Of a stretch of DNA of 64,000 bases, positions 10,134 through 57,978 are shown piece after piece. This DNA comes from Candidatus Phosphoribacter hodrii (GTDB taxonomy: Bacteria > Actinomycetota > Actinomycetes > Actinomycetales > Dermatophilaceae): positions 718,791 through 782,790 of the forward strand of contig JADJIB010000001.1 of NCBI GenBank assembly GCA_016707175.1. The letters run 5' to 3'. The notes beneath the pieces were generated by a model. That model was not told where the DNA came from. It did no database searches and saw only the letters and a list, made by a program, of their open reading frames with translations. The position numbers and the translations under genes are program-made. The first letter of the stretch is position 1. The number at the start of each line of letters is the position of its first letter.

Positions 10134-10250
10134 TCTGCCTGACCTGCCTGACCTGCCCGTTTCCCAAGATCCTCACACTCGCCGATGATCTGAGGCCTTC
10201 ACGGGCCGATTCGCCCCAACTTCCCCACACCCGCCGGCGATCTTCTGGAG
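10126..10250 (+). repeat. 9-bp tandem repeat (CTGCCTGAY x3.5) followed by two copies of the CACAC(C/T)CGCCG hairpin repeat
   Basis: Cores at 10174-10184 and 10226-10236, read directly. Confidence 0.8.
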
Positions 10251-10309
10251 GGCGGCGCCGTCAGCGGGCCAGGACGACGGCCACTTGACGGCTGATGTCC
10301 TCCACGAGC

Positions 10310-10906
10310 TCAGGAGGTCGCGGGCTGCCACGGGGTGAGCCACGGCGTCGCCGGCCATCCCTCGCGCCCCGCCATGAGCTCGTACATCGTGGCCCCGTCG
10401 ATCGATTCGCGGATCAGGTCGGCATGGCCGGCGTGCCGGGCGAGTTCCTCGATCAGGTGCAGGGCCACCCAGCGAACGGTCCAGGCCGGCACGTCCTTGG
10501 GGAACCAGGGCACGTCCTGCGGAACGGGAACGGAGGTGTTCAGATCCGCCGCGAGGATCGCCGCACTCGTCGCCGCGCTCTCGGCATCGAGACGTGCCAG
10601 CGCCACGGCGAGGCTGTCGCCGGGCAACCAGGTGTGCTCCGAGGCCCACCGCTCCTGTGCCTCCTCCATCGTCCCGGGGTGCACGACGAGGGCAGGCGCC
10701 TGCTCGATCATCCGGCGCCAACCGGTCTGCACGCTCGCGGCGTGCTTGACCAGGCTGCCGACGGAGAGGTCGCTCCGGGCGGCCTTCTGCCCCGCCTGCT
10801 CATCGCTCAGCCCGTAGGCGGCGTTGCGGAAGGCATCCTGTTGCTGCGTGAGGTAGCCAACGAGCAGGGCCTTCTCGTCAACCGAGGCGGGCGCGAGTCC
10901 GGGCAT
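10310..10906 (-). CDS. DinB/DUF664 family protein (mycothiol-transferase-like)
   Basis: ATG at 10906 behind AGGAG. LVGYLTQQQDAFRNAAYGLSDEQ...WVALHLIEELARHAGHADLIRE. Confidence 0.75.
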   Translation of the reverse strand: MPGLAPASVDEKALLVGYLTQQQDAFRNAAYGLSDEQAGQKAARSDLSVGSLVKHAASVQTGWRRMIEQAPALVVHPGTMEEAQERWASEHTWLPGDSLAVALARLDAESAATSAAILAADLNTSVPVPQDVPWFPKDVPAWTVRWVALHLIEELARHAGHADLIRESIDGATMYELMAGREGWPATPWLTPWQPATS

Positions 10907-11020
10907 GGTCACTCCTAGTGGTCGAGGTGCTCCCATCATGTCCCGGAGGTATGACAGACCCCTTGGTGGCGGCGCGGCGCGGAGGCGCGAAGGCACCGAG
11001 GGGCGGGCGAGAAGGACCGG

Positions 11021-14944: not shown

Positions 14945-14947
14945 GCG

Positions 14948-18790: not shown

Positions 18791-18821
18791 GGTCTCGGTT
18801 TCGGTCTCGGTCTCGGTCTCG
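18791..18821. repeat. Hexamer microsatellite (GGTCTC/GGTTTC) x5
   Basis: ggtctcggtttcggtctcggtctcggtctcg, read directly. Confidence 0.9.
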
Positions 18822-18865
18822 CCCCAGCCCCGGCGCCCGGCCCGGCTTTGTGGGCGAAGGGTATG

Positions 18866-19062
18866 CCGGTCGCGCCCCAGATCCTCACACCCGCCGATGA
18901 TTTCGCGGAGTGGTGACGTGCGTCATGCCAAACGCGACGTATGCCGCGCGTCTGGCATGACGCAAGCACCGTCGCCCAAGAACCACACACTCGCCGGTGT
19001 TTTCCGGCACCCCGGGCTCAGATTCCCCCGAATCCCTCACACTCGCCGAGGAATTCTCGGCA
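18866..19062 (+). repeat. Three copies of the CACAC(C/T)CGCCG hairpin repeat plus a nested palindrome (18920-18963)
   Basis: Cores at 18886-18896, 18986-18996 and 19038-19048. Confidence 0.8.
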
Positions 19063-30737: not shown

Positions 30738-31581
<844 letters not shown>

Positions 31582-39412: not shown

Positions 39413-39510
39413 CCGGATGCAGCCCACATCTGGAGGGCTAGTCAATGCATGGCGGGTGGGGCGGCGGGGGATTGCCGTCCCACCCGCTCTGCATTTCTGG
39501 CAGCACGCGA

Positions 39511-42631: not shown

Positions 42632-42694
42632 CCCCAGCCTGATCTCGCCCAAGCCTGCCCTACCTGACCTGCCCGACCCCTGCCGACCCTGCCC

Positions 42695-42945
42695 GCCCCA
42701 AGAACCACACACCCGCCGACGCTTTCTTCACGCCCAGGCCCCGCCCGCCCCAAGAACCACACACCCGCCGACGCTTTCTTCACGCCCAGGCCCCGCCCGC
42801 CCCAAGAACCACACACCCGCCGACGCTTTCTTAACGCCCAGGCCTCGATCGCCCCAAGATCCTCACAGCTGCCAGGGTTCTGGGCGTTGGGTATGCCGTT
42901 CGCCCCCGAATTCACCACACTCGCCGGCGATTTCCCGGCCCCACG
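42695..42945 (+). repeat. 52-bp tandem repeat (3 near-identical units plus 1 degenerate) of the CACAC(C/T)CGCCG element, plus one further dispersed copy
   Basis: Units start at 42695, 42747, 42799 and 42851. Cores at 42708, 42760, 42812, (42864) and 42916. A 9-bp inverted repeat AACGCCCAG/CTGGGCGTT (42833-42841 / 42879-42887) closes the array. Confidence 0.9.
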
Positions 42946-43015
42946 AACCCCAGCCCGCCCGACGAACCCCCCGCAACCCGACGAACCCCAGCCAACCAGC
43001 CTCAGCCAGCCAGCC

Positions 43016-43570: not shown

Positions 43571-43579
43571 GCACCGAAC

Positions 43580-45252
43580 CTAGCCGACCTGTCGCCGCCG
43601 CACCCACGCTTGCCAAGGGGCAAGGACACCGAGGTGAGCGGGCGGCATACCGGAGTCGTCAGAGTCTCCCGACGAGATGACGACCTCCGCGTCCTCCCAG
43701 CCATCCGGCAGCGCGACCTCGACCGACTCCCCGCTGAGGTTCGCGACGACCAACAACTCGTCGCCCTCCAGCGCCCGCGTGAAGGCATAGACGCTCGGGT
43801 GGTCGGCGAGCAGCAGCTCGAACCGCCCCTCAACGACCACCGGCAGCTCGCGCCGCAGCCGGATCAGCCCCTGGTAGTGGGCGAAGACCGACTCCGGGTC
43901 ACCCACCTGCGCGGCCGCGTTGATCTCCCGGTATGCCGGGTTGACCGGCAGCCACGGCGTCCCCGTCGTGAACCCCGCGTGCTCGGACGCGTCCCACTGC
44001 ATCGGTGTGCGCGCGTGGTCGCGGCTCTGGACGTTGACCGCGGCGAGCGCCACCGCCGGGTCCATGCCCTTGCCCACCGCCTCCGCCGACCAGTTGCGCG
44101 ACTCGACGTCATCGAGCTGATCGAGCGAGGTGAAGGGGTAGTTGACCATCCCCAACTCCTCCCCCTGGTAGACGTAGGGGGTGCCGCGGTGCAGGTGCAG
44201 CACCGTCGCGAGCGCCTTCGCCGAGACCTCGCGGTATGCCGTGCTGCCGGCTCCGTAGCGCGACACCGGTCGCGGTTGGTCGTGGTTGCACCAGTAGAGG
44301 CTGTTCCAGCCGACATCGGCCAGGCCGTCCTGCCAGCGGGCCATGATCGACTTCAGCCGGACCCAGTCGACGGGGCGGATGTCGTAGCGGCCGCCCATCC
44401 CGTGGTCGACGCCCATGTGCTCGAACTGGAAGACCATGTCGAACTCGCCGCGCGCCGGGTCGGTGAACCGCACCGCGTCGTCGACGGTGGCGCCCGGGGC
44501 CTCCCCAACGGTGATGAGTTGCTTTCCGCCCCAGGCGTTTTCATGCATCTCAGCGACGAACTCGTGGATCCGCGGCCCGTTGAAGAACCACCCGGTGCCG
44601 TCGGCGTTGAACTGCTTGGAGACGAGGTTGATGACGTCAAAGCGGAAGCCGTCGACGCCGCGGTCGAGCCACCAGCGCAGCATCTCGGCGACGGCCGCCC
44701 GCACGTCGGGGTTCTCCCAGTTGAGGTCGGGCTGCTTGCGATCGAACAGGTGCAGGTAGTACTCCCCGTCGCGAGATCCGGCTCCCACGTCGACCCGCTG
44801 AAGAACGCCTGCCAGTCGGTCGGCTCGGCCCCCGGCGCCCCGATCGTCATGCCGTCGCGCGGCTCGCGCCACCAATACCAGTCTCGCCGTGGGCTTTCCC
44901 GCGAGCTGCGGGCCTCGACGAACCACGGGTGCTCGTCGCTCGTGTGGTTGACGACGATGTCGATGACGAGCTTCATCCCGCGCGCATGCAGCTGCGCAAT
45001 GAGCCGGTCGACGTCCTCGATCGTCCCGAAGAGCGGGTCGACGCCCTGGTAGTCGCTGATGTCATAGCCGTTGTCCGCCTGCGGCGAGGGATAGAACGGC
45101 GACACCCAGACGACGTCGGCCCCGAGCGTCTGGATGTGGTCGAGCCGGTCGATGAGCCCCGGCAGATCGCCGAAACCGTCACCGTTGCTGTCCGCGAAAC
45201 TCCGCGGATACACCTGGTAGACCACGCTATTGCGCCACCACGGCTGCGACAT
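43580..45252 (-). CDS. GH13 alpha-glucosidase / oligo-1,6-glucosidase family; apparent 1-nt deletion in a homopolymer at 44764-44767
   Basis: WWRNSVVYQVYPRSFADSNGDGFGDL, VIDIVVNHTSDEH, then FSGSTWEPDLATG|EYYLHLF needs one extra G. GVDGFRFDVI, VGEAP, WCNHDQPR follow. Confidence 0.8.
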
Positions 45253-45283
45253 CGACACTCCCTCTGCGGCTAGGCTGAATCGC

Positions 45284-46153
45284 GTGACCACTGGGGGACG
45301 GGCACCTCGCCACCGGGGTCCACGGCATACCCTCCTGTATGCCGCGTGCGCGGCGCTAACGCTACTCGCCACGGCCTGTTCCGGCGCGAGTCCAACCACC
45401 GCGACGCCCACCACGACCTTGGTCAGCGAGACACCGACGACCTGGGCCACGCAGACACCAGCGACCACCGTCCCGACGACCGCTGCGGCGCCCACGGCGA
45501 GTGAGCCCGCGCCCACCGCGTCATCGACCGCCACCACGTCCTCACCTCGGCCCAGCAGCAGCTCGCCGACGGCGGCCCCCGTCGCGGGAGTCCTTCGCAT
45601 CGTTGACGCGTGGATTCCCTACTCGCAGCAGCGCAAGGACGAGATGGCGGCATACGCCAAGCGTCACTATGGGGTTGATTCCTGGACGCTGGACCCCCAG
45701 GTGATCGTCCTGCACTTCACCGAGACGGACACCTGGGAGCCGGTGCGATCGAGTTTCGCCATCGACTCGCCCAACCGGGGTGAGCTGCCCGGGACGTGCG
45801 CCCACTTCGTCGTCGACCAGTCCGGCATCGTCCACGCGCTCGTCCCGACCAACGTCATGTGTCGGCACGCCATCGGGCTCAACCACGTGGCGATCGGCAT
45901 CGAGATCGTGCAGGCGACCCACGGTCACACGTCGCTGTGGGCCGATCAGCAGATCCTCGCGCGGCCCGCTCAGATCCAGGCAGTGCTGGCGCTGGTCCGG
46001 AAGTTGCAGGCTCAGTTCGGCATCGCGAACTCAGATGTGATCGGTCACGCGACCGCCAACGGGCACCGGCTCTTCCTGGACAAGGAAGGCTGGCGCAACG
46101 ACCACACCGACTGGCAGGCCCCCAGCGTCGCCGAGTTCCGCTCCCGCCTGTAA
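45284..46153 (+). CDS. Lipoprotein N-acetylmuramoyl-L-alanine amidase (Amidase_2/PGRP fold)
   Basis: Lipobox LLATAC, Thr/Pro linker, then VIVLHFTETD...CAHFVVDQSGIVHALVP...GLNHVAIGIEIV...VIGHATANG. Confidence 0.8.
   Translation: MTTGGRAPRHRGPRHTLLYAACAALTLLATACSGASPTTATPTTTLVSETPTTWATQTPATTVPTTAAAPTASEPAPTASSTATTSSPRPSSSSPTAAPVAGVLRIVDAWIPYSQQRKDEMAAYAKRHYGVDSWTLDPQVIVLHFTETDTWEPVRSSFAIDSPNRGELPGTCAHFVVDQSGIVHALVPTNVMCRHAIGLNHVAIGIEIVQATHGHTSLWADQQILARPAQIQAVLALVRKLQAQFGIANSDVIGHATANGHRLFLDKEGWRNDHTDWQAPSVAEFRSRL
46116..46153 (+). repeat. Left copy of a ~38-bp direct repeat (3' end of the amidase gene)
   Basis: ggcaggcccccagcgtcgccgagttccgctcccgcctgtaa versus the second copy at 46494-46531. 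Confidence 0.85.
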
Positions 46154-46186
46154 GCGCCAGCGAATCATCCGCGCCGTGAGCTGTTC

Positions 46187-46387
46187 TTACCGTGGGCGTC
46201 GGGCTGGCATCGGCCAAATGATCATGGCCAGTCCCACCAGCGAAAGGACGTAAACCCACCATCCACGGCCCCAGAGGAACGCCGAGGCGGCAACCAGAAC
46301 CCCGCCCGGGATAGCCCAACGCAAATATCGCCTAGAACTCACCGCAGAAACGATACGTGTCGACGGCGTCCGGCGCCGGGGTGCCAT
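46187..46387 (-). CDS. Small hypothetical membrane protein (66 aa, two hydrophobic segments)
   Basis: ORF track only. Lies in a lower-GC patch between the direct repeats. Confidence 0.3.
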   Translation of the reverse strand: MAPRRRTPSTRIVSAVSSRRYLRWAIPGGVLVAASAFLWGRGWWVYVLSLVGLAMIIWPMPARRPR

Positions 46388-46493
46388 TTGCCGATTGGCG
46401 GGCTGTCACCTCGTCATCTCGGACCGCGGTCCGATGACTCGAACACCACGCGCGGCCGCGGCGGTCGCGAGGAGGCTGGGCTGCGAGCCCGGG

Positions 46494-46531
46494 CAGGCCC
46501 CAGCGTCGCCGAGTTCCGCTCCCGGCTCTAG
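46494..46531 (+). repeat. Right copy of the ~38-bp direct repeat
   Basis: ggcaggccccagcgtcgccgagttccgctcccggctctag. With one extra C it would encode the same APSVAEFRSRL-stop. Confidence 0.85.
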
Positions 46532-46894
46532 CCGTTCAGTCCGACGGCTCAGCCCGGCCAGTCTTCACGCATGAGAATGAGGTAATCCGGCGAGAATGCG
46601 TCCGCGAGCGAGCCAGCGGTGGCTGCGATAGCGGCGCGTCGCTCTTCAACGTTGGGCGGAACCGATCGGCCGCATCGACCGCCCCGAGCCCGAAGTCCCT
46701 CTCGGGGACTGAGTGCCGCAGCTGCTGGATGGGCATCACTCAGTGAAACACGCTCTACCGAAATGTCGCACCTGACTTCGCCTCAAACGCTCCCGCTCAT
46801 TCGGGGGGCACGGGAACGTGACCTGTGCCACAGTGAGTGGGTCGGTGACGGGGCACCCGACGGTCATCCTCATCAGCGTCGATCGGGAGCTCAC

Positions 46895-48163
46895 ATGACT
46901 CTTCCCATCCCCTCGGTCCGCCCACTCGCCACGTCGAGCCGACCCCGCGGCATACGCCGCCTGCGGTATGCCGCCATCCTCCTCACCAGCCTCGGCCTCG
47001 CCGCCGCGGGCCTCACCTCCGCAACCCAAGCCTCCGCTGACGGGCCCGGAGTAGGCACCCCGTGGGTGGCGAGCCTGGGCGACAGCTACATCTCCGGCGA
47101 GGCCGGCCGCTGGGCCGGCAACTCCAACTCCAGTTCGTCGTCGGTCGATGCCCTCGGCTCGACCGCCTACTACGACAACGCCACTCGCACCGCCGAGCAG
47201 ATCAACCGCTGCCACCGCAGTTGGGCCGCCTCGATCTACATCAGCGCCGGCACCCAGGGCGTCGACCTGGCCTGCTCGGGCGCCCAGACCAGCACCTACA
47301 CGTCGTCCGACGGCTACTTCAAGCCCGGCCTGGACTTCTATGACAACGGCGCGGGCAAGCAGGGCCAGGCCAAGATGCTGCAGAACTTCGCGGCCGGCCA
47401 CAACGTCAAGATGGTCGTCGTCAGCATCGGCGGCAACGACTTCAACTTCGCCGGGATCATCCAGTCCTGCGTGACGAACTTCCTCACCTCGCCGTCGTGG
47501 TGGCCCAACTATTGCTACGACGACTCGTCGGTCAAGGCCAACTTCACCTCGACGAATGTCGCGACCGTCAAGGCCCGCATCACGACCGCCCTGCTCAACG
47601 TCCGCCAGGCGATGCGCAACGCCGGTTACGCCGACAGCGCGTGGACCCTCGTCGTGCAGGACTATCCGTCGCCGATCCCCAACGGCTCCGGCTTCCGCTA
47701 CAGCCAGTCCGGCTACACCCGCCAGAGCACCGGCGGCTGCGGCTTCTGGAACAGGGACGCCGACTGGGCCAACTCCTCCGCCCTCCCCACGATCAACAAC
47801 ACCGTCAAGGGCGCGCTCACCGCCTCGGGCATCGCCGGAGCCAAAGTCCTCGAGTTGCAGTCGGCCTTCAACGGCCGCCGCCTCTGCGAGAACACCGTCG
47901 GCCTGCTGCAGGAGAAGGGCTTCTCGTCCTGGACCCAGGCGGGTGCCGTCGACAAGACCGAATGGATCTCGCAGATCCGCACGATCTCGACGGCCACCGG
48001 CCCCTACTACGTCCAGGAGTCCCTGCACCCCAACTACTGGGGCGAGCTCGCTGAGCGCTCCTGCGTCCGCCAGGTGTGGAACGGCGGCGCCGTCCGCGGC
48101 GGCACGTGCACCATCGCGGGCACCGGCCTGCTCAACGGCGAGCCCCGGATGTCGTTGCTCTGA
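46895..48163 (+). CDS. Secreted SGNH/GDSL hydrolase (lipase/esterase)
   Basis: ATG at 46895 behind GGGAG. Signal peptide ...ATQASA. GDSYISGE block I, GGNDF block III, multiple Cys pairs. Confidence 0.8.
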   Translation: MTLPIPSVRPLATSSRPRGIRRLRYAAILLTSLGLAAAGLTSATQASADGPGVGTPWVASLGDSYISGEAGRWAGNSNSSSSSVDALGSTAYYDNATRTAEQINRCHRSWAASIYISAGTQGVDLACSGAQTSTYTSSDGYFKPGLDFYDNGAGKQGQAKMLQNFAAGHNVKMVVVSIGGNDFNFAGIIQSCVTNFLTSPSWWPNYCYDDSSVKANFTSTNVATVKARITTALLNVRQAMRNAGYADSAWTLVVQDYPSPIPNGSGFRYSQSGYTRQSTGGCGFWNRDADWANSSALPTINNTVKGALTASGIAGAKVLELQSAFNGRRLCENTVGLLQEKGFSSWTQAGAVDKTEWISQIRTISTATGPYYVQESLHPNYWGELAERSCVRQVWNGGAVRGGTCTIAGTGLLNGEPRMSLL

Positions 48164-48187
48164 AAGGCGATTCGCACCTCACGTGAG

Positions 48188-48220
48188 CGGGGCGGCATAC
48201 CCATCAGGTATGCCGCCCCG
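48188..48220. terminator. Hairpin CGGGGCGGCATACC-catca-GGTATGCCGCCCCG between convergent genes
   Basis: 14-bp perfect stem, 5-nt loop, made of an inverted octamer pair. Confidence 0.55.
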
Positions 48221-48265
48221 CCCCACGCCCCAGCCGCAACTGAATGGGGTCACCGAGCCGCGGGC

Positions 48266-49087
48266 TCAGTCGTGGTGCGCGTGTTCGTGGCCCTGGTGAG
48301 TCGGCTCCTCGAGCTGGAAGGTGCAGTGTTCGACGTCGAAATGGCCTGCGAGACAGACGCCGAGGGAGTCGAGCACCCGACCGCCGCCTCCGTCGGCGAG
48401 CACGTCCTGCGCCACGACCACATGGACCGAGAGGACCGGCAGGCCGCTGGTGATGGTCCAGGCGTGCAGGTCGTGCGCGTCGATGACGCCGGGAGTGTCC
48501 AGCAGATGCTGACGCACCTGGGTGAGGTCAACACCCCGGGGGGTGGCCTCAAGAAGGACGTCCACCGCCTCCCGAAGCAGCCCCCACGTGCGCGGCAGGA
48601 TCATCAACCCGATGAGGGCAGAGGCGATGGGGTCGGCCTGGGTGTAGCCGGTCAGCGCGATCACGATGGCCGCGACGATCACGGCAGCGGAGCCCAACAG
48701 GTCGCCAAGCACCTCCAGATATGCCCCGCGCACGTTGAGCGACTCCTGCTGCCCACCGCGCAGCACCAGCAACGAGATCGTGTTGGCGACGAGACCAACG
48801 ACGGCAACCCCGAGCATGAGTCCGGTGGCGACTTCCGGCGGCGAGGTGAACCGTCGCACCGCCTCGACCAACACGAAGCCGGCCACGCCGAAGAGCAGCA
48901 GCGCGTTGACGACCGCTGCCAGGACCTCAGACCGTTGATACCCGAATGTGCGCTCAGGGGTCGCTGGCCGGCTGGCGAACCAAGCCGCAAGGAGCGCGAG
49001 GCCGACGCCGGCGGCGTCGGTCAGCATGTGCGCGGCATCGGCCAACAGGGCCAACGACCCGGAGATCAGCCCGCCGATGACCTCCCA
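48266..49087 (-). pseudogene. czcD: CzcD/ZitB-type cation diffusion facilitator lacking its N-terminus (about 30 codons missing)
   Basis: The frame opens at ...WEVIGGLISGSLALLADAAHMLTDAAG (normally mid-TM1/TM2), immediately after an in-frame TGA and the G13 run. The remainder is intact to HQGHEHAHHD. Confidence 0.7.
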
Positions 49088-49091
49088 TCAC

Positions 49092-49824
49092 TTAGGGGGG
49101 GGGGGGGTGGCAGTCGGCCCCACAGTCCGAAGTCGCCGGTCCGGCCACGGTGGCAGCGTCATCGGCGCAGCAACCGTCATCGCAACCCGCGCCCTGTGAC
49201 GCTCTCGGCTCAGAGCTGCCAGCGGCACAGCAGAGGTCGCCGCGCCAGGCGTTGCGCCCTTCGTTGATCGCGACCCCGGCGATGACGAGCGCCGCGATGG
49301 GGTCAGCCCAGCTCCACCCCAGCGCGGCGTTCAGCACGAGGCCGAGAAGGAGAACAGCGAGAGGTAGGTGCCAGCAACGTCCGCGACGAGTCAGCGGCCG
49401 GCGCGGCGGGCGACGTTGCGCCCAGGACAGAATGGCATGATGATCAGGGGAGGAGCAGCCCGATGCCGACCGGCGAGGTGTCCGGCTCGACGCCGAACAT
49501 CAGTCCGCGGACTGATCCGAAGGTCACGTAACCGGCCAGCGCGAAGAACGAGAGCGCCATCAGTCGCTGGGCGACGCGTTCACGCGACTCAGGCAGATGG
49601 TGGCTGAACTGCCACAGGATGATAAGTCCGCTGGAGACTTCGACGAGGGAGTCCAGGCCGAAGCCGATCAGCGCCACGGACGATGCCGCCGCACCGGCCC
49701 ACACCGCGATGATGCACTCGACGATGTTGTAGGCCACCGAGGCGCCCGCCAACTGCCGCGCCCGGCGGCCGAGGCGTTGCCGCTCCTGCGCCGTCAGCCC
49801 GCTGGCCCTCGTGTTGGTGCTCAT
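49092..49824 (-). pseudogene. Small cation-efflux family transporter with a Cys-rich tail; several frame changes and an in-frame TGA between 49340 and 49450
   Basis: ORF 49444..49851 (SVAYNIVECIIAVWAGAAASSVALIGFGLDSLVEVSS) and ORF 49092..49337 (LNAALGWSWADPIAALVIAGVAINEGRNAWRGDLCC...). The linking text (MP..LSWAQRR..ARRAGR*LVADVAGTYLSL) is spread over three frames. Confidence 0.6.
49095..49107. repeat. G13 homopolymer at the junction of two disrupted transporter genes
   Basis: cttaGGGGGGGGGGGGGtgg, read directly. Confidence 0.95.
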
Positions 49825-50201
49825 CGCGCCTCCGTGCCATAGCGCGGGCACAGTTCCACGGCATCACCCGTGAGGGCGAGCAGGTTCTCAGCAGCTCGCA
49901 GCACCTGCAGCGTCGCCTCCTGATAGGCCAAGGCGTAGACCGAGGCGCGACCCTCAGGTCGCACAGTGACCAGACCGCAATCAAGCAGGCAGAGCAGGTG
50001 CTTGCTCACCGTCGATTGAGCCAGGCCCAGGTGTTTGGTGAGGTCGACGACCCGATGCTCACCCAACGCAAGGTGCTGAACGATGGCCAGCCGCGAGCGA
50101 TCGCTGAACCCGTGGAACAGGCAGGCCGCAGCCGTGAGCGCTGAGGTTTCGCTGATCCCAGCAACCGGGGCAGGAGCGCTCATTTGCGTTTTCATCGTCA
50201 T
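49821..50201 (-). CDS. cmtR: ArsR/SmtB family metalloregulator, CmtR-like (Cd/Pb type)
   Basis: RLAIVQHLALGEHRVVDLTKHLGLAQSTVSKHLLCLLDCGLV has the LCxxxC pair characteristic of CmtR, plus a C-terminal Cys (ELCPRYG). ATGA coupling to the transporter gene. Confidence 0.7.
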   Translation of the reverse strand: MTMKTQMSAPAPVAGISETSALTAAACLFHGFSDRSRLAIVQHLALGEHRVVDLTKHLGLAQSTVSKHLLCLLDCGLVTVRPEGRASVYALAYQEATLQVLRAAENLLALTGDAVELCPRYGTEAR

Positions 50202-50269
50202 ATGGCGATGTTAGCGCCAATTGGCTCGCGCTGGAACCACCCGCCCAGCACCCGCCCCGGTACTCGCCG

Positions 50270-51703
<1,434 letters not shown>

Positions 51704-53084
51704 TCAGGCTGGATCGAGCCGCCCCGCGTCCAACAACCCCGACCAGGTGTCGAGCTTGGTGCGATCGCGACCCAGGGCGGCACCCCGAGCGATCTCGGCA
51801 GCGTCGATGGCCCGCCAGCCATCGAGGCTGATCACCTCGTGGCCCTGCTCGGCCAACGCGGTGAGCAGGTCCGGTCGGTCCGCCCCGGTCACCCACCCCA
51901 CCGGCCGCCCCGCCATCGCCGGCCCGCGCGGCCACCAAGTCGGCCACGAGGTGGCGCACGGTCTGCGACGCATCCGACTTGTTGGTGCCGATGACCCCGG
52001 TCGGGCCGCGCTTGATCCACCCGACGACATACTCCCGAGGCAGCACCTCCCCGTCCGCCCCAACGATCCGCCCCTCGACGTTGGGGATCACCGCGGCACG
52101 CTCGTCGAACGGCACCCCGGCCAGCGCGGTCGACCGATACCCGATCGAGCGCAGCACCAACTCGGTCTCCAGCCGCTGGGTCTCGCCAGTCCCCACGACC
52201 TTGCCCGCCTCGTCCAGCCGGGTCCGCTCGAGCACGAGCGCTTCGACGCGGCCGTCGCCCTCGATGGCAATCGGCTTGCGCCAGAACCAGAAATGCAGCC
52301 GCCGACGCGGGTTCTCGACGACCTTCGCGGCCGCCTCCCGCAGGATCTCGACGTTCGCCTTCGGTCGGCGCTCCAGGTCATCGGGTATGCCGTCGAACGC
52401 GTCCTCGTTGACGCTCACCGCCAGCCCCGGCGTGTGGACGAGCTCGCGCAGCTCGACCGTCGTGAAGGCCGCGTGCTGCGGACCGCGCCGCGCGATGACG
52501 TGGATGTCGTCGGCCTGGTGCCGGTGCAGTTCAGCCAACACCGCCGGGGGCATGTCGGTCACTTCGAGCGAGTCGGCCGTCTTGGCCAGGACCCGGGCGA
52601 CGTCGACCGCGACGTTTCCGACGCCGATCACCGCCGCAGTCCGCACGCCGCCGAGGTCCTGCGCGGGGGCGTCCGGATGCCCGGAATACCAAGCGACGAA
52701 CTCGCGCGCCGACCGGCTGCCCGCCAGGTCCTCCCCCGGGACGCCGAGCTGGGCATCCTCAGCCGCGCCCGCGGCATACACAACGGCGTCGTAGGCCGCG
52801 AGAAGCTGCTCGCGCGAGATGTCTCGACCGAGCTCGACGTTGCCGATGAAGCGGACGCCGCTGCTGTCGAAGGTGCGGGCCAGCGCGTTGGCGACCGACT
52901 TGATGCTCGTGTGGTCAGGCGCAACGCCGTAGCGCAGCAGGCCGTAGGGCGTCGGCAGCCGGTCGATGAGGTCCACCTGCACCGGCAATTCGCTCTGCCC
53001 AACCAGTGATTGGGCAGCGAACAACCCGGACGGGCCGGCTCCCACAATCGCCACCCGGGTGACGTCCCGATCTGCACTGCCCAT
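51704..53084 (-). CDS. fprA: FprA-type NADPH:ferredoxin (adrenodoxin) reductase; apparent frameshift near 51900-51945
   Basis: ATG at 53084 behind GGAGG. VAIVGAGPSGLFAA, TPYGLLRYGVAPDH, GVGNVAVDVARVL. The C-terminus continues in ORF 51704..52063 (...ADRPDLLTALAEQGHEVISLDGWRAID). Confidence 0.75.
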
Positions 53085-53184
53085 CGCGCACCTCCGGTGC
53101 CACGAGCGTCGACGTTGACGGCCCGAGCCTAACGGGCACCGCCGCGAACGTCGCGTGACCGAGGTCCCACCCACGCGCCGGACC

Positions 53185-53208
53185 GAGGTATGCCGCGCGG
53201 CATACCTC
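53185..53208. promoter_or_regulatory. 24-bp perfect palindrome GAGGTATGCCGC/GCGGCATACCTC in the divergent fprA / K+-channel intergenic region
   Basis: Seen directly. Function unknown. Confidence 0.3.
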
Positions 53209-53250
53209 CGCTGCTATCCGGAACGCCCGGGACGCGGTTCAATAGCCAAC

Positions 53251-54315
53251 GTGAGCATCGTCCGCCGCATGTCCCTCGCGATCGGGTCGCTGCTTGTCAT
53301 CACGGTCTATGGCGTCGTGGGTTACATGATCCTCGGCTACAACCTGCTCGACGCGATCTACCAAGCGGTCATGACCCTGACGACTGTGGGCTATGGCGAG
53401 GTCTTGGAAGCGACGCCGGTGCGCAAGGCGTTCTCGACCAGCCTGATGATCCTCGGGGTCGGTATCGCTCTTTACAACCTCACGGTGATGGTCGGGACGG
53501 TCACCGAGGGGGATGTCCGGAAGTACTTCGAAAGGCGTCGGATGGACAAGCGAATCTCGGGCATGAGTGGCCACGTCATCATCTGTGGCCACGGCCGGGT
53601 GGGTCGCTCGGCGCGCGAGCACCTGAAGAACATTGGTTCGCAGGTGGTCGTCGTCGACAACGTCCCCGATCGGGTCATGCACCTTGAGGACCCGCACCTC
53701 ATCGGCGACTGCACGCGCGACGAGGTGCTCCGCGCGGCCGGCATCGACCGTGCCCGCGCCCTCATCGCCACCCTGGAGACCGACGCCGACACCGTCTATC
53801 TCACCCTCTCGGCGCGGGCCCTGCGTCCCGATCTGGTCATCATCGCCCGCGCCCGCACCGTCGACTCCAAGGAGAAGCTCGTCCTCGCCGGGGCGACCCG
53901 AGCCGTCAACCCGCAACTCATCGGCGGTCGCCGCATGGCGGCCTTCGCGCTCAACGCCCATGTCGCGGAGTTCCTCGACGTCGTCATGCACGACGAGGAG
54001 CTCGATTTCCGGATCGAACAAATCCGGATCCCAGTCGACTCGCCGTTGGCTGGCCGCAGCCTCGGCGAGTTGGACCTGGAGCAATCGTCCGGCGCGCGCC
54101 TGCTCGCCCATCGACCAGGCCCGCGTATGCCGTTCGCCCCCCACCCGTCGTCGGACACCGTGCTGGAGCCCGGGTCGGTGTTGATCGCGTTCGGCACGAT
54201 GGCCCAGATCGAGCACCTCATGGATCAGGCCTCTCCCGACCCCGGGACGCTCGGGGCAGGGCCCGCCGCCCCCGGTGGCCCCGTCTCCCCCATCATCGCC
54301 CGCACGTCGGCTTAG
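53251..54315 (+). CDS. Two-TM potassium channel with RCK (TrkA-N/TrkA-C) domains
   Basis: Selectivity filter TLTTVGYGE. RCK fold VIICGHGRVGRS. Start is GTG 53251 or ATG 53269. Confidence 0.85.
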   Translation: MSIVRRMSLAIGSLLVITVYGVVGYMILGYNLLDAIYQAVMTLTTVGYGEVLEATPVRKAFSTSLMILGVGIALYNLTVMVGTVTEGDVRKYFERRRMDKRISGMSGHVIICGHGRVGRSAREHLKNIGSQVVVVDNVPDRVMHLEDPHLIGDCTRDEVLRAAGIDRARALIATLETDADTVYLTLSARALRPDLVIIARARTVDSKEKLVLAGATRAVNPQLIGGRRMAAFALNAHVAEFLDVVMHDEELDFRIEQIRIPVDSPLAGRSLGELDLEQSSGARLLAHRPGPRMPFAPHPSSDTVLEPGSVLIAFGTMAQIEHLMDQASPDPGTLGAGPAAPGGPVSPIIARTSA

Positions 54316-54329
54316 GCAGTCGCGACGAC

Positions 54330-55556
54330 TCAGGCCTCGTCGAGGGGGCGCAGCACCAGGCCGGTGCGCAGTTTGGGTGTGAAGAACGTCGACTTGGGTG
54401 GCATGAGCAGGCCCTCGCGCGCCGTCCGCTCGATCTGCTCGAGGCTGGTCGGGCGGATAAGGATCGCCAGGGCCTGCGGGTCGGCGTGCAGCACATCGAG
54501 CACCTCGGCCACCCCGTGCTGGTAGTCCAGCACCGCCCCTGTCCCGGCCAGCGTGTGCTCCAGCCAGGCGCCGTCGAGCGCCCGCACGTCGTCGAAAGCC
54601 CCCGGCCGCGGCACCAACCAGGTCGCCACCTCCGGTGACTCGATGAGCAACAACCGCCCTGAGCGGTTGAGCTCGGCGAGCAGCGCCGGGCCGGGCTGGG
54701 CGGCGGGGGCGGGCACCAACTCGAAGTCCCTCGCCAACGCCTCCCGCAAGGCTGCCGGGGTCAGGCCCCGGACAATGCGGTGGATGGCGTCGATAGCCAA
54801 CTGATCGGCGACGAGCTCGCCCACGAAGGCCAACGTGGCCCCCGCCCCGGATGCGCTCTCGGGCTCTTTGGCCTCCGCCATCTCATCGCGGTAGCGCCGG
54901 GCCACGCCATAACGGTGGTGACCGTCGGCGATCAACACGTCGTCGGCGCCGATGATCGCCGAGATCGCGGCGATCCGGTCGGGGTCGATAACCCGCTCGA
55001 CGACATGTTCGACGCCGTCGACGACCAGACTCCCCATCGGCTCGGCGGGCTCGGCGAGCGCAGCGGTCAAACCCTGCGCCAGCGACAGCCCCCAGACCGG
55101 CGAGAGGTTGGTGCCAGTGGCCCGGGTGAGATCGAGACGGTCGGTCGACGCCTTGGGCGTGGTCCGCTCATGCGGAAGCACCTGACCGGCCCCCTCAGCG
55201 ACCACCTCCAACCCGCCGAGAACCCCGACCAACTCGCGTCGCTGGCCGGCTTCGTCGACGAAACGCATCCGATAGATCGACAGCGTCGGCACCTCGTCAC
55301 GGACCAGGACGCCGGTCTCCTGCCAGTCGCGCAGCAGGTGCGCGGAGGCGGCATACCGGGTCGAGTCGGTGCCTGCGGGGATGTCCGCGTGGACGATGTT
55401 GTGCGGGTCGCGAGCCCGAAGTGCGGCGACGTCGGCGTCGGACAACACGTCGTAGGGCGGTGCGATGACGGCGTCGAGGTCGATTCCGGGCGCGTAGCGC
55501 AGAGCCCGGAACGGCTCGAACCGAGGCCCGCGAGAAGGGGCAGGTGCGGGCGGCAT
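54330..55556 (-). CDS. DUF1015 domain-containing protein
   Basis: FEPFRALRYAP...VIAPPYDV...LPHERT...ADGHHRY...LMPPKSTFFTPKLRTGLV. Confidence 0.85.
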   Translation of the reverse strand: MPPAPAPSRGPRFEPFRALRYAPGIDLDAVIAPPYDVLSDADVAALRARDPHNIVHADIPAGTDSTRYAASAHLLRDWQETGVLVRDEVPTLSIYRMRFVDEAGQRRELVGVLGGLEVVAEGAGQVLPHERTTPKASTDRLDLTRATGTNLSPVWGLSLAQGLTAALAEPAEPMGSLVVDGVEHVVERVIDPDRIAAISAIIGADDVLIADGHHRYGVARRYRDEMAEAKEPESASGAGATLAFVGELVADQLAIDAIHRIVRGLTPAALREALARDFELVPAPAAQPGPALLAELNRSGRLLLIESPEVATWLVPRPGAFDDVRALDGAWLEHTLAGTGAVLDYQHGVAEVLDVLHADPQALAILIRPTSLEQIERTAREGLLMPPKSTFFTPKLRTGLVLRPLDEA

Positions 55557-55803
55557 ACCTGGAAGTCTAGGCAACGAGTGAGCCTGCCTCCGTGAGCAGT
55601 TCGAGATGCGGAACCGCAGACTGTGGGCAACAATGCTCATGTATGCCGCGTGTCGGCGAACGGTGGCGCTCCCCCTCGTGTCCATCGCTCGGGCCATGCC
55701 CCTGGCCTCACCGCACGCGGCATACCCATGCCCTCGGGTCGTGGGAGACTCGGGACGGGCTCCGACCCGGGGCCGCCGGACCAGGGAGGCGCGCGGTAGC
55801 CGC

Positions 55804-57843
55804 ATGAACTTCTTCTCCATCTATGACCACGGCTTCGCGCGGGTCGCTGCCTGCACGGTCCCGGTGCGTCTCGTCGACCCGGCCGCCAATGTCGCCGCCA
55901 CGTTGGCCGTGGCGCGCGAGTGCCACGACGAGGGCGTTGCCGTCGCGGTGTTCCCGGAGTTGGGACTGACCGGCTACTCGCTGGACGACCTCGTGCTGGC
56001 CGACCCACTGCTCGACGCAGTCGAGGTCGCGCTCGAGGAGTTGGTGCGAGCATCGGCCCAGTTGTTGCCGGTGTTGGTCGTCGGGGCGCCCTTGCGCGCA
56101 CGAGGGCGGGTCTATAACTGCGCGGTCGTCGTGCACCGGGGGCGGGTGCTCGGGGTGGCGCCGAAGTCTTACCTGCCGACCTATCGCGAGTTCTATGAGT
56201 CGCGGACCATCGCGGCCGGCGACGACGTGCGCGGGACCATTCGGGTCGGCGAGGACAACGTGCCGTTTGGGCCGGATCTGCTCTTCCGGGCCGTCGATGT
56301 GCCTGACCTCGTCGTCCACGTCGAGGTCTGCGAGGACATGTGGGTCCCGATCCCACCGTCGGCCGAGGCCGCGCTGGCCGGAGCCACGGTGCTCGTCAAC
56401 GTGTCGGGGTCGCCGATCACGGTCGCCAAGGCGCGCGACCGCGCGATGCTCGCCGAGTCGGCCTCCTCACGCTGCCTCGCGGCATACCTGTATGCCGCTG
56501 CCGGAGAAGGCGAGTCGAGCACCGACCTCTCGTGGGACGGCCAGACCATGGTCTGGGAGAACGGGTCGCTGCTGGCCGAGGGCGAGCGCTTCCCGTCGGG
56601 GCCACGACGGTCGGTCGCCGACGTGCACCTGGCGAGGCTGCGGCAGGAGCGGATGCGTCAGGGGACGTTCGACGACAACCGGCGCACTCACGCGGCGCGG
56701 GTCGGGGCGTTCCGCGAGGTGACCTTCCGGTTGGATCCGCCGCGGGGCGATCTCGGGCTGCGTCGGGCAGTCGACCGCTATCCGTTCGTGCCGGACGACG
56801 CGGCCCGGTTGGCGCAGGACTGTTTCGAGGCGTATTCGATCCAGGTGTCGGGGCTAGAGCAGCGGCTGCGCTCGATCGGCCGACCGACGGTGGTCATCGG
56901 GGTGTCGGGTGGGCTCGACTCGACCCACGCGCTGATCGTCGCGTGCCGGGCGATGGACCGGTTGGGGCGGCCCCGCTCGGACGTGCTGGCCTTCACCATG
57001 CCGGGGTTCGCGACCTCGGATCACACGAAGGGCAACGCGATCCGGCTGATGGAGTCGCTCGGGGTCACCTGGGAGGAGCTCGACATCCGGCCGGCGGCCA
57101 CCCAGTTGCTCCGCGACCTCGGGCACCCGGTGGGGCGCGGCGAGGAGGTCTATGACGTCACCTTCGAGAACGTCCAGGCCGGCCTGCGCACCGACTATTT
57201 GTTCCGAATCGCCAACCAGCGCAAGGGGATCGTGCTCGGCACGGGCGACCTGTCCGAGCTCGCCCTGGGCTGGTGCACCTATGGCGTCGGCGATCAGATG
57301 TCGCACTACGGGGTCAACACGGGGGTGCCCAAGACGCTCATCCAGCACCTCATCCGGTGGGTCATCGCCTCGGGCCAGTTCAGCGACGAGGTGGGGGCGA
57401 CCCTGCGTTCGATCCTCGACACGACGATCAGCCCCGAGTTGGTGCCGACCCGTGAGGGTGAGGCGGCCCAGTCGACCGAGGCCATGATCGGGCCGTATGC
57501 CCTGCAGGATTTCACGCTGTATTACGTCCTGCGCCACGGCTTGCGACCGTCGACGATCGCCTTCCTGGCCTGGCATGCCTGGCACGACACGGCGAGCGGG
57601 CAGTGGCCGGAAGGTTTCCCCGAAGGTGCGCGCACGGCATACACCCTGGGGGAGATCCGGCACTGGCTGGAGGTCTTCCTCACCCGGTTCTTCGCCAACC
57701 AGTTCAAGCGCTCGGCGCTGCCCAACGGCCCGAAGGTGGTCCGCGGCGGTTCGCTGTCGCCCCGAGGCGATTGGCGTATGCCGTCCGACGCGTCCGCGAA
57801 GGTCTGGCTCGACGAGTTGCACAGCACCGTCCCCGAAGCCTGA
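55804..57843 (+). CDS. nadE: Glutamine-dependent NAD+ synthetase
   Basis: 679 aa. CN-hydrolase domain (VFPELGLTGY, CEDMW) and synthetase domain (GVSGGLDSTHAL). CLAAYLYAAAGEGESSTDLSWDGQTMVWENG is close to mycobacterial NadE. Confidence 0.95.
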   Translation: MNFFSIYDHGFARVAACTVPVRLVDPAANVAATLAVARECHDEGVAVAVFPELGLTGYSLDDLVLADPLLDAVEVALEELVRASAQLLPVLVVGAPLRARGRVYNCAVVVHRGRVLGVAPKSYLPTYREFYESRTIAAGDDVRGTIRVGEDNVPFGPDLLFRAVDVPDLVVHVEVCEDMWVPIPPSAEAALAGATVLVNVSGSPITVAKARDRAMLAESASSRCLAAYLYAAAGEGESSTDLSWDGQTMVWENGSLLAEGERFPSGPRRSVADVHLARLRQERMRQGTFDDNRRTHAARVGAFREVTFRLDPPRGDLGLRRAVDRYPFVPDDAARLAQDCFEAYSIQVSGLEQRLRSIGRPTVVIGVSGGLDSTHALIVACRAMDRLGRPRSDVLAFTMPGFATSDHTKGNAIRLMESLGVTWEELDIRPAATQLLRDLGHPVGRGEEVYDVTFENVQAGLRTDYLFRIANQRKGIVLGTGDLSELALGWCTYGVGDQMSHYGVNTGVPKTLIQHLIRWVIASGQFSDEVGATLRSILDTTISPELVPTREGEAAQSTEAMIGPYALQDFTLYYVLRHGLRPSTIAFLAWHAWHDTASGQWPEGFPEGARTAYTLGEIRHWLEVFLTRFFANQFKRSALPNGPKVVRGGSLSPRGDWRMPSDASAKVWLDELHSTVPEA

Positions 57844-57855
57844 CCCGTCCGCCAA

Positions 57856-57978
57856 TCCCGCTCCCCCTCCCCGCTCCCCCTCCCCGCTCCCCAAATTCCA
57901 CACACTCGCCGGCAAGTTCGGCCCACCCCGGCTCCAGCGACCCCGAATTCCCCACACCCGCCGATGATCTCGGGGACC
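57856..57978 (+). repeat. 13-bp tandem repeat (CCCCGCTCCCCCT x2.7) followed by two copies of the CACAC(C/T)CGCCG hairpin repeat
   Basis: Cores at 57901-57911 and 57953-57963. Confidence 0.8.

Follow-up and report, generated by a model that had tools for sequence, protein, structure and literature searches.

A family of 52-bp-phased palindromic repeats in Candidatus Phosphoribacter-type Dermatophilaceae, with a DUF559 protein as candidate partner

Results

Four repeat arrays between convergent genes

The hairpin-like copies found in the 64-kb stretch of DNA analysed here (the window) are units of an interspersed DNA repeat specific to one lineage, the Ca. Phosphoribacter-type Dermatophilaceae. 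In their behaviour the repeats resemble REP-type "junk or architectural" DNA and not an RNA motif. The overall explanation that we favour, with about even confidence, is a DNA-level REP/BIME-like element with a DUF559 protein as candidate partner.

The window contains 11 exact CACACYCGCCG cores, all on the + strand, plus one degenerate unit (11 to 12 units per 64 kb), compared with a mean of 0.37 and a maximum of 2 exact cores in dinucleotide-preserving shuffles. This confirms the 11 clear copies and one degenerate unit at four loci of the original prediction, the coordinates of which were all correct. The twelve 52-nt frames of these units can be aligned without gaps, and the start-to-start spacing is 52 nt at all four loci with the exception of a single 100-nt step (18886 to 18986) in array 2. 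The arrays and their units are listed below.

10163..10247, + strand: array 1, two units 52 nt apart, between the YbaK-like gene (stop 10133, +) and the mycothiol-S-transferase gene (stop 10310, -)
10163..10195, + strand: array 1 unit, core 10174-10184 = CACACTCGCCG (nhmmer, 32.6 bits)
10215..10247, + strand: array 1 unit, core 10226-10236 (nhmmer)
18875..19059, + strand: array 2, three units, 3' of bpa (stop 18759, +) and opposite the methyltransferase gene (stop 19095, -)
18875..18907, + strand: array 2 unit, core 18886-18896 (nhmmer)
18915..18965, no strand assigned: inserted unrelated hairpin of array 2, GTGACGTGCGTCATGCCA...TGGCATGACGCAAGCAC, which interrupts the 52-nt register and has one GTATGCCG octamer inside
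18975..19007, + strand: array 2 unit, core 18986-18996 (nhmmer)
19027..19059, + strand: array 2 unit, core 19038-19048 (nhmmer)
42697..42937, + strand: array 3, five units (three near-identical, one degenerate and one diverged), between a 178-aa ORF (stop 42631, +) and the NYN-domain gene (stop 43016, -)
42697..42729, + strand: array 3 unit, core 42708-42718 (nhmmer)
42749..42781, + strand: array 3 unit, core 42760-42770 (nhmmer)
42801..42833, + strand: array 3 unit, core 42812-42822 (nhmmer)
42853..42885, + strand: degenerate array 3 unit CACAGCTGCCA, in register, near 42864 (52-nt frame alignment)
42905..42937, + strand: array 3 unit, core 42916-42926 (nhmmer)
57890..57974, + strand: array 4, two units, between nadE (stop 57843, +) and the GyrI-like gene (stop 57987, -)
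57890..57922, + strand: array 4 unit, core 57901-57911 (nhmmer)
57942..57974, + strand: array 4 unit, core 57953-57963 (nhmmer)

As originally described, each locus lies 3' of a + strand stop codon and faces a minus-strand gene, and all four arrays are located between convergent genes. Pfam annotation of the neighbours identified a tRNA_edit/YbaK-like protein (+) and a mycothiol-S-transferase (-) for array 1, BPA (+) and a methyltransferase (-) for array 2, and NadE (+) and a GyrI-like protein (-) for array 4. The earlier naming of the YbaK-like, bpa and nadE genes is therefore upheld, but the "saccharopine-DH-like" gene is not, as the 178-aa ORF beside array 3 (42095-42631, +) has no Pfam match. 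The GTATGCCG octamer occurs 105 times in the window.

Unit anatomy, phasing and host range

A search with an nhmmer model in related genomes revealed many further copies and brought the family to 257 units in 71 loci (99 units in the first round), all of them in Phosphoribacter-type DNA. Each 33-nt unit forms an imperfect palindrome, in which the arms CCCGAAWWC and GWWTTCGGG surround a near-invariant asymmetric core, (C)TCACACYCGCCG. Alignment positions A11, C15, C18-A21 and C26 are invariant, and C22, C24, G25, C27 and G28 are conserved in at least 90% of units. Units are arranged head-to-tail every 52 +/- 1 bp (~5.0 helical turns), with 1 to 10 units per array. In a scan that permitted spacings of 36-66 nt, 130 of 171 spacings were exactly 52 nt and 160 of 171 were 50-54 nt. 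Neighbouring units had 167 same-strand spacings versus only four inverted junctions, all of them tail-to-tail.

The regular alternation of a conserved palindromic part of ~33 nt and a variable part of ~19 nt is what might be expected of degenerate or miniature CRISPR arrays. However, CRISPR arrays have near-identical repeats and unique spacers of 26-72 nt, whereas here the repeats within one array diverge from each other and the ~19-nt spacers, although variable in sequence, are often duplicated as two-unit blocks. Small arrays also number in the dozens in each genome, with both orientations represented, and no Cas family is present among the 25 Pfam families listed for 70 array-neighbouring proteins. 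We consider a CRISPR origin extremely improbable.

No match was found in a BLAST search of a seven-unit array against plasmids and phages, no target-site duplications were seen at array borders, and full-text literature searches with the core, the octamer and DUF559/MTES_1575 returned no paper that describes these repeats or a link between DUF559 and repeats. We rejected the idea that the core is a universal motif common to many repeat families. Most other matches to the tandem pattern lie in coding sequence for Pro/Thr/Ala repeats, whose periods are divisible by three, and the remaining core matches belong to an unrelated CACACCCGCCGGCGGAGG family that merely contains the 11-mer (its genome matches are two Polyangiaceae MAGs). 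The only apparently related repeat outside the Phosphoribacter-type core matches is in Ornithinibacter (L080), with TTCCTCACACCCGCCGG and other arms.

Arrays are extragenic, enriched at convergent junctions and found in either orientation

In the window, 4 of 13 convergent junctions contain an array compared with 0 of 46 other junctions (hypergeometric p = 0.0016). Across the family, gene calls at the loci were made with an in-house codon log-odds caller that made at least one error (at bpa); with these calls, none of 44 non-redundant arrays lies inside a gene and 22 of 37 (59%) are at convergent junctions, a three-fold enrichment over the 20% background (p = 2e-7). About 40% of arrays are located outside convergent junctions, including four at divergent (promoter) regions. 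The original prediction confined the copies to convergent regions, which is true of the window but for the family is an enrichment and not a rule. Copies equally common inside coding regions, which would have spoken against the original prediction, were not observed. The extragenic location, the large number of copies and the enrichment at convergent gene ends support its suggestion of a REP/BIME-type dispersed repeat family.

All copies were originally described as having the same polarity. This holds for the four window arrays (a chance of 1/8) but not for the family, whose arrays occur in both orientations in related genomes, unrelated to the flanking genes. In co-directional contexts four arrays are sense, six are antisense and one is mixed, while in convergent contexts 12 are on the + strand, eight are on the - strand and one is mixed. 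Orientations are also mixed along a 1.39-Mb P. baldrii contig, and the GC skew of the window gives no guide to replication polarity.

Weak evidence of compensatory change in the arms

A strand-specific 3'-UTR or terminator-associated RNA motif, in which a compensated stem would present a conserved loop of ~12-15 nt to an RNA-binding factor, is compatible with the sense orientation of 4/4 window arrays after + strand stop codons. The arms are complementary at the consensus level, with 73.9% of cells paired versus 31-52% for slid partners. Both pairing and covariation are slightly above those of shuffles (71.1% paired; 0 and 1 of 500 shuffles reach the observed pairing and covariation, respectively), and T:A<->A:T swaps are seen in a few orthologous units. 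Unit-specific compensation is nonetheless marginal. In a fixed register, pairing within units exceeds random arm pairing by just 0.26 bp, RNAalifold predicted no consensus pair, and chimeric units assembled from the 5' half of one locus and the 3' half of another are no less stable when folded than native units. Of the earlier proposal that compensatory changes maintain a stem flanking a ~12-nt loop, the consensus complementarity stands but the compensation is weak.

The RNA-motif reading is contradicted by the orientation of the arrays, which is random relative to flanking genes over 44 arrays, and folding is more stable for the antisense than for the sense strand. No Rfam family matched the repeats: the sole match to Rfam 15 in the whole window at gathering score is a TPP riboswitch elsewhere in the window, and a scan of array 3 at E<=10 gave only a chance snoRNA match. 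The unit has a loop of ~9-15 nt without a T-run, in contrast to the GC-rich short-loop hairpin and T-run of an intrinsic terminator, and no site resembling a terminator was detected in arrays 3 or 4 when positions 42000-58500 were scanned. An RNA motif is very unlikely on this evidence.

Array size varies while the core is conserved

The bpa array has three units in the window and eight in a strain-level contig (L169, 92-99% identical) that also contains the hairpin at 18915-18965. The orthologous array has six units in P. baldrii L023 and three in L132, and the P0095 loci have two, three and five units in three samples. Different species retain arrays at orthologous positions, with one site that has an array in P. 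baldrii but is empty in the window. When orthologous arrays of two species are compared, identity is 97% in the core, 68% in the arms and 57% in the spacers, and the 52 +/- 1 spacing is kept while the spacers diverge. The core is under selective conservation. Units at different loci have no common spacers (~33% identity; best whole-unit identity 0.83) and thus show no trace of having transposed recently as 52-nt units.

Some of these observations are also consistent with passive minisatellite or REP-like DNA that has no dedicated protein, having spread long ago and been kept similar by gene conversion and slippage, with convergent ends as harmless sites. Unit numbers that differ between strains and samples, the lack of recent copying between loci, the lack of target-site duplications and the unrelated housekeeping genes that neighbour the arrays would all fit. 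The contrast in conservation between the core and the arms and spacers, and the maintenance of spacing despite spacer divergence, argue against it, as does the DUF559 gene described below. We regard passive DNA as rather unlikely.

The arrays could alternatively be host architectural or topological elements that are independent of DUF559, in which phased putative sites on one helix face would recruit a nucleoid protein or gyrase, or would form a bidirectional barrier between converging units, as proposed for E. coli BIMEs. A period close to five helical turns, the enrichment at convergent junctions and the retention of arrays at orthologous sites are in keeping with this proposal, as is the finding that every convergent junction of >30 nt in the window is occupied by an array or by a GTATGCCG hairpin pair. 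On the other hand, a large minority of arrays lie off convergent junctions, unit number is highly variable even between strains, and one orthologous site is empty. Such a role seems improbable on balance.

A DUF559 gene is flanked by repeat arrays

The original prediction had suggested looking for a RAYT or another cognate gene. No RAYT (Y1_Tnp) is present among the families listed for the 70 array-neighbouring proteins, but a different nuclease gene is associated with the arrays. DUF559/MTES_1575 is the sole family of interest among the recurring Pfam families of array neighbours. The DUF559 gene was the only one of its kind across all repeat-bearing loci. It lies outside the window, is single-copy and is embedded between the largest arrays, which have 4/4 (L101), 7/5 (L224), 6/10 (L182) and 2/5 (L229-231) units on its two sides. 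Many DUF559-bearing contigs are <2 kb, and arrays are a likely cause of assembly breaks.

The protein matches PF04480 (3.2e-6) above the cut-off and PF18741 (3.2e-9) with 37.2 bits, just below the curated cut-off of 38.2. In its AF2 model (pLDDT 92), the N-terminal half resembles the winged helix of AbiEi (6y8q) and the C-terminal half resembles the catalytic domain of I-Bth0305I (3r3p, TM 0.66-0.71) as well as 3hrl. The nuclease motifs ...SPMETR... and EYDGRxH are invariant in the homologues, and E195, E239, D241 and H245 are invariant in 34 homologues. Based on sequence and the predicted structure, the protein, with an AbiEi-like wHTH and a Vsr/I-Bth0305I-like DUF559/MTES_1575 PD-(D/E)xK nuclease domain, is the best candidate partner of the repeat.

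Homologues had flanking repeats in 12/12 lineages examined. Eight of these, from six different gene neighbourhoods, have arrays with a period of 51-53 nt, cores of the ACTCGCC type and CCGAAA/TTTCGG arms; the other four have palindromes instead of 52-nt arrays. If the gene merely resided in repeat-prone DNA, as the passive reading holds, the flanking of this family by ~52-nt arrays of differing sequence in at least eight lineages and six neighbourhoods would be very unlikely to arise by chance, assuming arrays in ~7% of intergenic regions. Dispersal of repeats away from the DUF559 locus was seen in Phosphoribacter-type genomes only. Since only the gene's own flanks were seen to carry repeats in other lineages, the flanking arrays could also be operators or insulators of the DUF559 gene.

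Discussion

The repeats share several features with the REP/REPIN-RAYT systems of Enterobacteria and Pseudomonas, being short imperfect palindromes, of about 20-40 nt for REPs and 33 nt here, that are extragenic, present in many copies and enriched at gene 3' ends. In both cases a single-copy nuclease-type gene is flanked by repeats, and the repeat sequence changes between lineages together with the gene. However, the 5' GT(A/G)G tetranucleotide of REPs is absent here (by column composition, the 5' foot is CCCGA, with neither GTAG nor GTGG), REPINs are inverted doublets whereas our units are direct tandem repeats at a fixed 52-bp period, and it is the centre ("loop") that is conserved, not the stem. 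The enzymes also differ: RAYT (TnpA-REP) is an HUH Y1 transposase, whereas the gene flanked here encodes a predicted wHTH and Vsr-like PD-(D/E)xK nuclease. The arrangement of gene and repeats parallels that of REP-RAYT pairs with a different enzyme class, and the nuclease gene appears not to have been linked to such repeats before.

E. coli BIMEs are likewise clusters of palindromic units between genes, often convergent ones. They are believed to act as binding sites for architectural or topological proteins and to influence mRNA 3' ends, and binding of IHF, gyrase or Pol I is a characteristic of the class. Their units alternate in orientation with named linker motifs, unlike the direct repeats and variable spacers of constant length described here. 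MIRU-VNTRs of the Mycobacterium tuberculosis complex are also actinobacterial direct tandem units of ~50 bp in dispersed intergenic loci, with unit numbers that are polymorphic between strains. MIRUs are described as located inside operons, oriented with transcription and not palindromic. By this description they differ from our repeats, which have random orientation, mostly convergent sites and a palindromic unit with an invariant core.

In the predicted structure, the C-terminal domain of the DUF559 protein superposes on the catalytic domain of I-Bth0305I, a Vsr-like homing endonuclease, and the N-terminal half superposes on AbiEi, an antitoxin and autorepressor with a winged helix, whose own promoter contains the paired inverted repeats to which it binds. 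In contrast to these systems, the DUF559 gene has no intron, intein or phage context and no adjoining AbiEii toxin gene, and it is flanked by tandem arrays that, in Phosphoribacter-type genomes, are also present elsewhere in the genome.

Our favoured explanation is that the element acts as DNA and not as a strand-specific RNA, with the core as a putative protein recognition site. Arrays would gain and lose whole units by slippage or unequal recombination. They would survive almost exclusively in extragenic DNA, chiefly at convergent gene 3' ends, sites at which their presence may be tolerated. Hairpin-forming sequence at convergent 3' ends could also hinder read-through or RNA decay. The DUF559 protein would be the partner of the repeats, and its homologues in other actinobacterial lineages are each embedded in their own lineage-specific repeats, mostly with a ~52-nt period. 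The gene is associated with the repeats; its protein may bind or cut the unit, may drive or maintain the arrays, and may benefit the host. We tentatively suggest, while considering it somewhat doubtful, that the repeats and the DUF559 gene constitute a hitherto unrecognised repeat-enzyme pair of Actinobacteria that is functionally analogous to REP-RAYT but built on a winged-helix and Vsr-like (PD-(D/E)xK) nuclease. The protein would recognise the core, would measure out or maintain arrays at the 52-bp spacing of five helical turns, and would co-diverge with its repeats across Phosphoribacter, Pedococcus, Humibacillus and others.

Ca. Phosphoribacter is a key phosphorus-removing organism in wastewater plants, and the arrays are copy-number-variable markers for strain typing. 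Strict 52-bp phasing despite spacer decay is unusual for such repeats and provides a handle on how arrays are built. Interspersed palindromic repeats are widespread, but to our knowledge their partner enzymes are known for very few families, essentially RAYTs. If the proposed pairing is true, a second, unrelated enzyme class would be embedded in its own repeats, which would mean that the repeat-enzyme lifestyle evolved more than once, and the large DUF559 family of Actinobacteria would gain a function.

Repeat arrays in the window

All four predicted repeat loci were confirmed, each built from units with a 33-nt palindrome in a 52-nt frame:

10163-10247, forward strand: first array
18875-19059, forward strand: second array, bpa locus
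42697-42937, forward strand: third array
57890-57974, forward strand: fourth array

The window contains 11 exact matches to CACACYCGCCG, every one on the forward strand, compared with 0.37 +/- 0.65 in shuffled sequences. Tolerating one mismatch added a few dispersed matches, chiefly within coding sequence. The twelve units align without gaps as 52-nt frames and an independent repeat finder recovered the same family (family D3) with spacings of 52. Pfam matches confirmed three of the four forward-strand genes originally named (YbaK-like tRNA_edit, BPA, and NadE), while the ORF before the third array, which had been called saccharopine dehydrogenase-like, has no Pfam family. Each is faced by a minus-strand gene, as described (mycothiol-S-transferase, methyltransferase, NYN, and GyrI-like by Pfam). 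According to our own gene calls, 13 of 59 junctions in the window are convergent, and arrays occupy four of these 13 and none of the other 46 (hypergeometric p = 0.0016).

The unit consensus is CCCGAATTC-CTCACACCCGCCGATG-ATTTCGGG: the arms are reverse-complementary at this level, the core is asymmetric, and a variable remainder of approximately 19 nt fills each 52-nt unit. Across 96 distinct units, positions A11, C15, C18-A21, and C26 are invariant and C22, C24, G25, C27, and G28 are at least 90% conserved. Same-strand neighbours among the matches listed are spaced by 52 nt in 130 of 171 cases and by 50-54 nt in 160; most other spacings are approximately 100-104 nt, at places with a degenerated unit. 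Arrays among these matches have 1-10 units, and many consist of duplicated two-unit blocks (e.g., in the collected loci L106, L053, and L047). That the arrays are CRISPRs can be practically dismissed.

Distribution in related genomes

One genome per species was scanned for two cores 50-54 nt apart. Matches were mostly due to chance, with at least 14 loci from Ca. Phosphoribacter baldrii (JADIZV01) and at least nine from a Dermatophilaceae MAG (JBGAQN01). With an HMM trained on the copies in the window, at least 99 units were retrieved, confined among the matches listed to the window, JADIZV01, and JBGAQN01. A metagenome scan allowing spacings of 36-66 nt raised the total to at least 257 units at 71 or more loci. 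The window is 78-85% identical to P. baldrii locus L023 and 92-99% identical to metagenome contig L169, which marks it as Phosphoribacter-type DNA. Tandem units with TTCCTCACACCCGCCGG and different arms in an Ornithinibacter MAG (L080) may be a related variant.

The remaining pattern matches were tandem repeats in coding sequence or an unrelated CACACCCGCCGGCGGAGG repeat that contains the 11-mer by chance. This repeat is non-coding and tandem (periods of 26-36 nt, up to approximately 26 units). Its shared segment CACACCCGCCGGCGGAGG includes CCGCCGGCGG, a palindrome of 10 nt, and precedes a variable stretch of 8-18 nt. The repeat was retrieved solely via the 11-mer, at L012 and L066 (Polyangiaceae MAGs), L115, L150, L163, L170, L181, L208, L221, and L228.

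Genomic context and orientation

None of the 44 non-redundant arrays among the matches listed lies within a gene. Both neighbours were called for 37 arrays, of which 22 are convergent, 11 co-directional, and four divergent, against a background of 20%, 62%, and 18% (p = 2e-7), using home-made gene calls for the collected loci with the bpa locus corrected by hand. The predicted confinement to convergent regions therefore gives way to an enrichment. The single polarity of all copies holds for the four window arrays only: arrays in convergent contexts are forward in 12 cases, reverse in eight, and mixed in one; those in co-directional contexts are sense in four, antisense in six, and mixed in one; and orientations are mixed along one P. 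baldrii contig. Because the family has both orientations, we attribute the uniformity in the window to the small number of arrays there, four, for which its probability is 1/8. Opposite arrays that abut are invariably joined tail to tail, with a constant distance between them (at least four cases, two mutually orthologous).

Short micro-repeats, rich in C and 7-12 nt long (e.g., CTGCCTGAC, GGTCTC, and CCCCTCCCCGCT), edge arrays, chiefly at the 5' side:

Window: 10126-10155, 18803-18822, 42640-42692, 42940-43010, 57858-57889
Other loci: L229 2236-2291; L093; L023 6840-6925

Two 1.29-kb insertion sequence copies, 99.7% identical, lie approximately 0-20 nt from repeat units at two loci:

L049, 5551-6839: rve and HTH_38 transposase
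L091, 4000-5287: rve and HTH_38 transposase

We read these domains as IS30-like. Their position suggests that the element targets the arrays or their palindromes, by analogy with IS1397 and REPs.

Stem pairing and the role of the core

The original prediction proposed compensatory changes preserving a stem, possibly in a 3'-UTR RNA motif. Evidence for such changes is weak. Pairing slightly exceeds that of shuffles (73.9% of cells in register 7-18 with 28-39, versus 71.1% for column shuffles and 31-52% for slid partners), as does the covariation score (0.151 versus 0.118, reached by 1 of 500 shuffles); as the tool cautions, kinship among sequences alone can give such values without structure. 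Counts at column pair 13:33 equal expectation under independence, and T:A and A:T are in modest excess at 14:32. Mean arm pairing is 5.78 of 9 within units versus 5.52 for arms from different loci. RNAalifold found zero consensus pairs in the units, and chimeras that join a 5' half from one locus to a 3' half from another are as stable as native units on both strands. Some orthologous units show paired T:A<->A:T changes, a pattern that template switching in palindromic DNA would also produce. Folding is more stable for the antisense strand (-14.2 kcal/mol) than for the sense strand (-10.5 kcal/mol).

An asymmetric core that stays conserved whichever way it faces transcription cannot be accounted for by a strand-specific RNA role, and we consider such a motif very improbable. 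Mainly because of this conservation irrespective of transcription direction, we take the core to be a site recognised at the DNA level, and we are fairly confident that the family is an interspersed repeat acting as DNA and not as an RNA motif.

Evolution of the arrays

Arrays occupy orthologous sites across species, including the bpa locus (window, L169, L023, and L132) and the pairs L047/L036 and L008/L063; such conservation is overestimated here, as the loci were chosen for having arrays. In two species pairs, identity is 97% in the core, 68% in the arms, and 57% in the spacers, and their orthologous arrays have no indels between units. The selective conservation of the core argues against passive, minisatellite-like DNA, as does the association with a gene described below, and we judge this explanation unlikely.

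The bpa array has eight units in L169 and three in the window, the difference being a single clean five-unit block, and one convergent site has six units in P. baldrii and is empty in the window and L169. Unit number changes rapidly. A host architectural element, independent of any DUF559 protein, would agree with the five-turn phasing of the units and the convergent bias, but the variability in unit number and the arrays at divergent sites speak against it; we give it a similarly low likelihood.

No spacers are common to different loci of one genome (identity 33%, best whole-unit identity 0.83), and this comparison shows no trace of recent inter-locus copying of 52-nt units. Either the 33-nt palindrome alone moves and is set down at a measured distance, or these are old arrays under a constraint on length.

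A DUF559 gene embedded in repeats

Pfam annotation of 70 array-neighbouring proteins revealed unrelated housekeeping families and, three times, DUF559/MTES_1575. These three are one orthologous gene (approximately 317 aa), outside the window, with a glgX-like gene to one side and glgP to the other. Arrays on both sides point towards it (order -> gene <-), with 4/4 (L101), 7/5 (L224), and 6/10 (L182) units, the largest among those found. An 81% identical orthologue (L229-L231) has arrays of 2/5 units. The repeat-bearing loci listed contain no further copy of the gene. Further homologues (42-56% identity) have the following flanks:

P0010: synteny as in Phosphoribacter; a different 53-nt unit (CACCCTGAAAACCCGCCGGGCAACCGCTTACTC), three left and two inverted right
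P0039 (Pedococcus ginsenosidimutans) and P0073: another neighbourhood; 52-nt units (...CTTTCGGCCACTCGCCCGAAA...) on both sides
P0035: between DNA ligase and lipase genes; GTACGTCTTCCGACACTCGCCGGCAAACG units, 5-6 and 7, at 51-52 nt
P0043 (Humibacillus MAG): 51-nt units, two per side
P0022 (sponge metagenome): 52-nt units GAAAGTCGACACTCGAGCGACTTTC
P0095: two units left; 2, 3, or 5 inverted units of approximately 52 nt right in three samples
P0068, P0091, P0110, and P0071: long palindromes or other short repeats on both flanks, without 52-nt arrays

Repeats flank the gene on both sides in all 12 lineages, with arrays of approximately 52-nt period in eight, the repeats of other lineages being known here from the flanks of this gene. 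The eight have in common a core of the ACTCG(C/G)C type and arms of the CCGAAA/TTTCGG type; the remainder of the unit differs. Approximately 7% of intergenic regions in the window have an array, so chance falls far short of explaining a gene with arrays on either flank in several independent neighbourhoods. Many of the contigs with these genes have a length of just 1-2 kb, as expected if flanking repeats break assemblies.

In most lineages, the region upstream of the DUF559 gene has a DnaA-box-like motif (TGTGGAYAA) at a constant distance:

L101, 3185
L229, 2424
L232, L235, L239, L241, L243, and L246: -48 from the DUF559 start
Phosphoribacter group: -77 to -79
P0095: as the complement, TTATCCACA
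L247: TTATCCACA twice, at approximately -65

The motifs SPMETR and EYDGRxH are invariant across 34 homologues of the protein. In an AlphaFold2 model (mean pLDDT 92), the N-terminal ~190 residues are similar to the antitoxin AbiEi (6y8q), a winged-helix autorepressor whose binding sites are paired inverted repeats. The C-terminal ~100 residues can be superposed on I-Bth0305I, a Vsr-like homing endonuclease, in its catalytic domain (3r3p, TM 0.66-0.71), and on 3hrl, a DUF559 structure that a sequence-only search matched weakly. From these fold matches, the protein is predicted to join a sequence-specific DNA-binding domain to a nicking or cutting domain, a combination that would suit a recogniser of the repeat unit.

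Other features of the window

The octamer GTATGCCG is the most frequent non-homopolymer 8-mer in the window (105 in 64 kb versus 1.1 expected, strands about equal; e.g., 1509/1524, 8079/8095, 18069/18084, 45323/45337, and 48193/48208). It occurs in all Phosphoribacter-type loci and L080, at approximately 1.5/kb in every related locus versus 20 in 626 kb of other high-GC genomes. Within genes it keeps fixed frames (Tyr-Ala/Ala-Tyr); its intergenic density is twofold, with frequent inverted pairs forming GC-rich hairpins at convergent gene ends. It resembles DNA uptake sequences (USS/DUS) or HIP1-type hyper-iterated motifs, and a literature search gave no match. Further features are:

7593-7695, minus strand: TPP riboswitch (Rfam RF00059, 59.4 bits)
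30740-31580: ~850 nt of nearly all G with some C, between two forward-strand genes
39174-39510: long convergent intergenic region, both repeat families absent, with a strong hairpin (GGTTCGCCCTTCCGG...CCGGAAGGGCGAACC) and an A/T-rich stretch

The poly-G stretch looks like a sequencing or assembly artefact; L019 and L026 also have G-runs, which are shorter.

Relationship to REP elements

Neither these repeats nor their association with DUF559 is described in the texts searched, whose coverage is incomplete. Unlike REPs, Phosphoribacter-type units are without GTAG and are tandem, whereas REP units are inverted; no RAYT was seen among the 25 families listed for the 70 array-neighbouring proteins. 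They are REP-like in working and should not be classed as REPs. With moderate confidence, we favour a DNA-level REP/BIME-like repeat in which the invariant core would be recognised by a protein and array length would be altered by whole units. The DUF559 protein would be the probable partner of the repeat, on the model of RAYT genes, which are flanked by REPs of their own.
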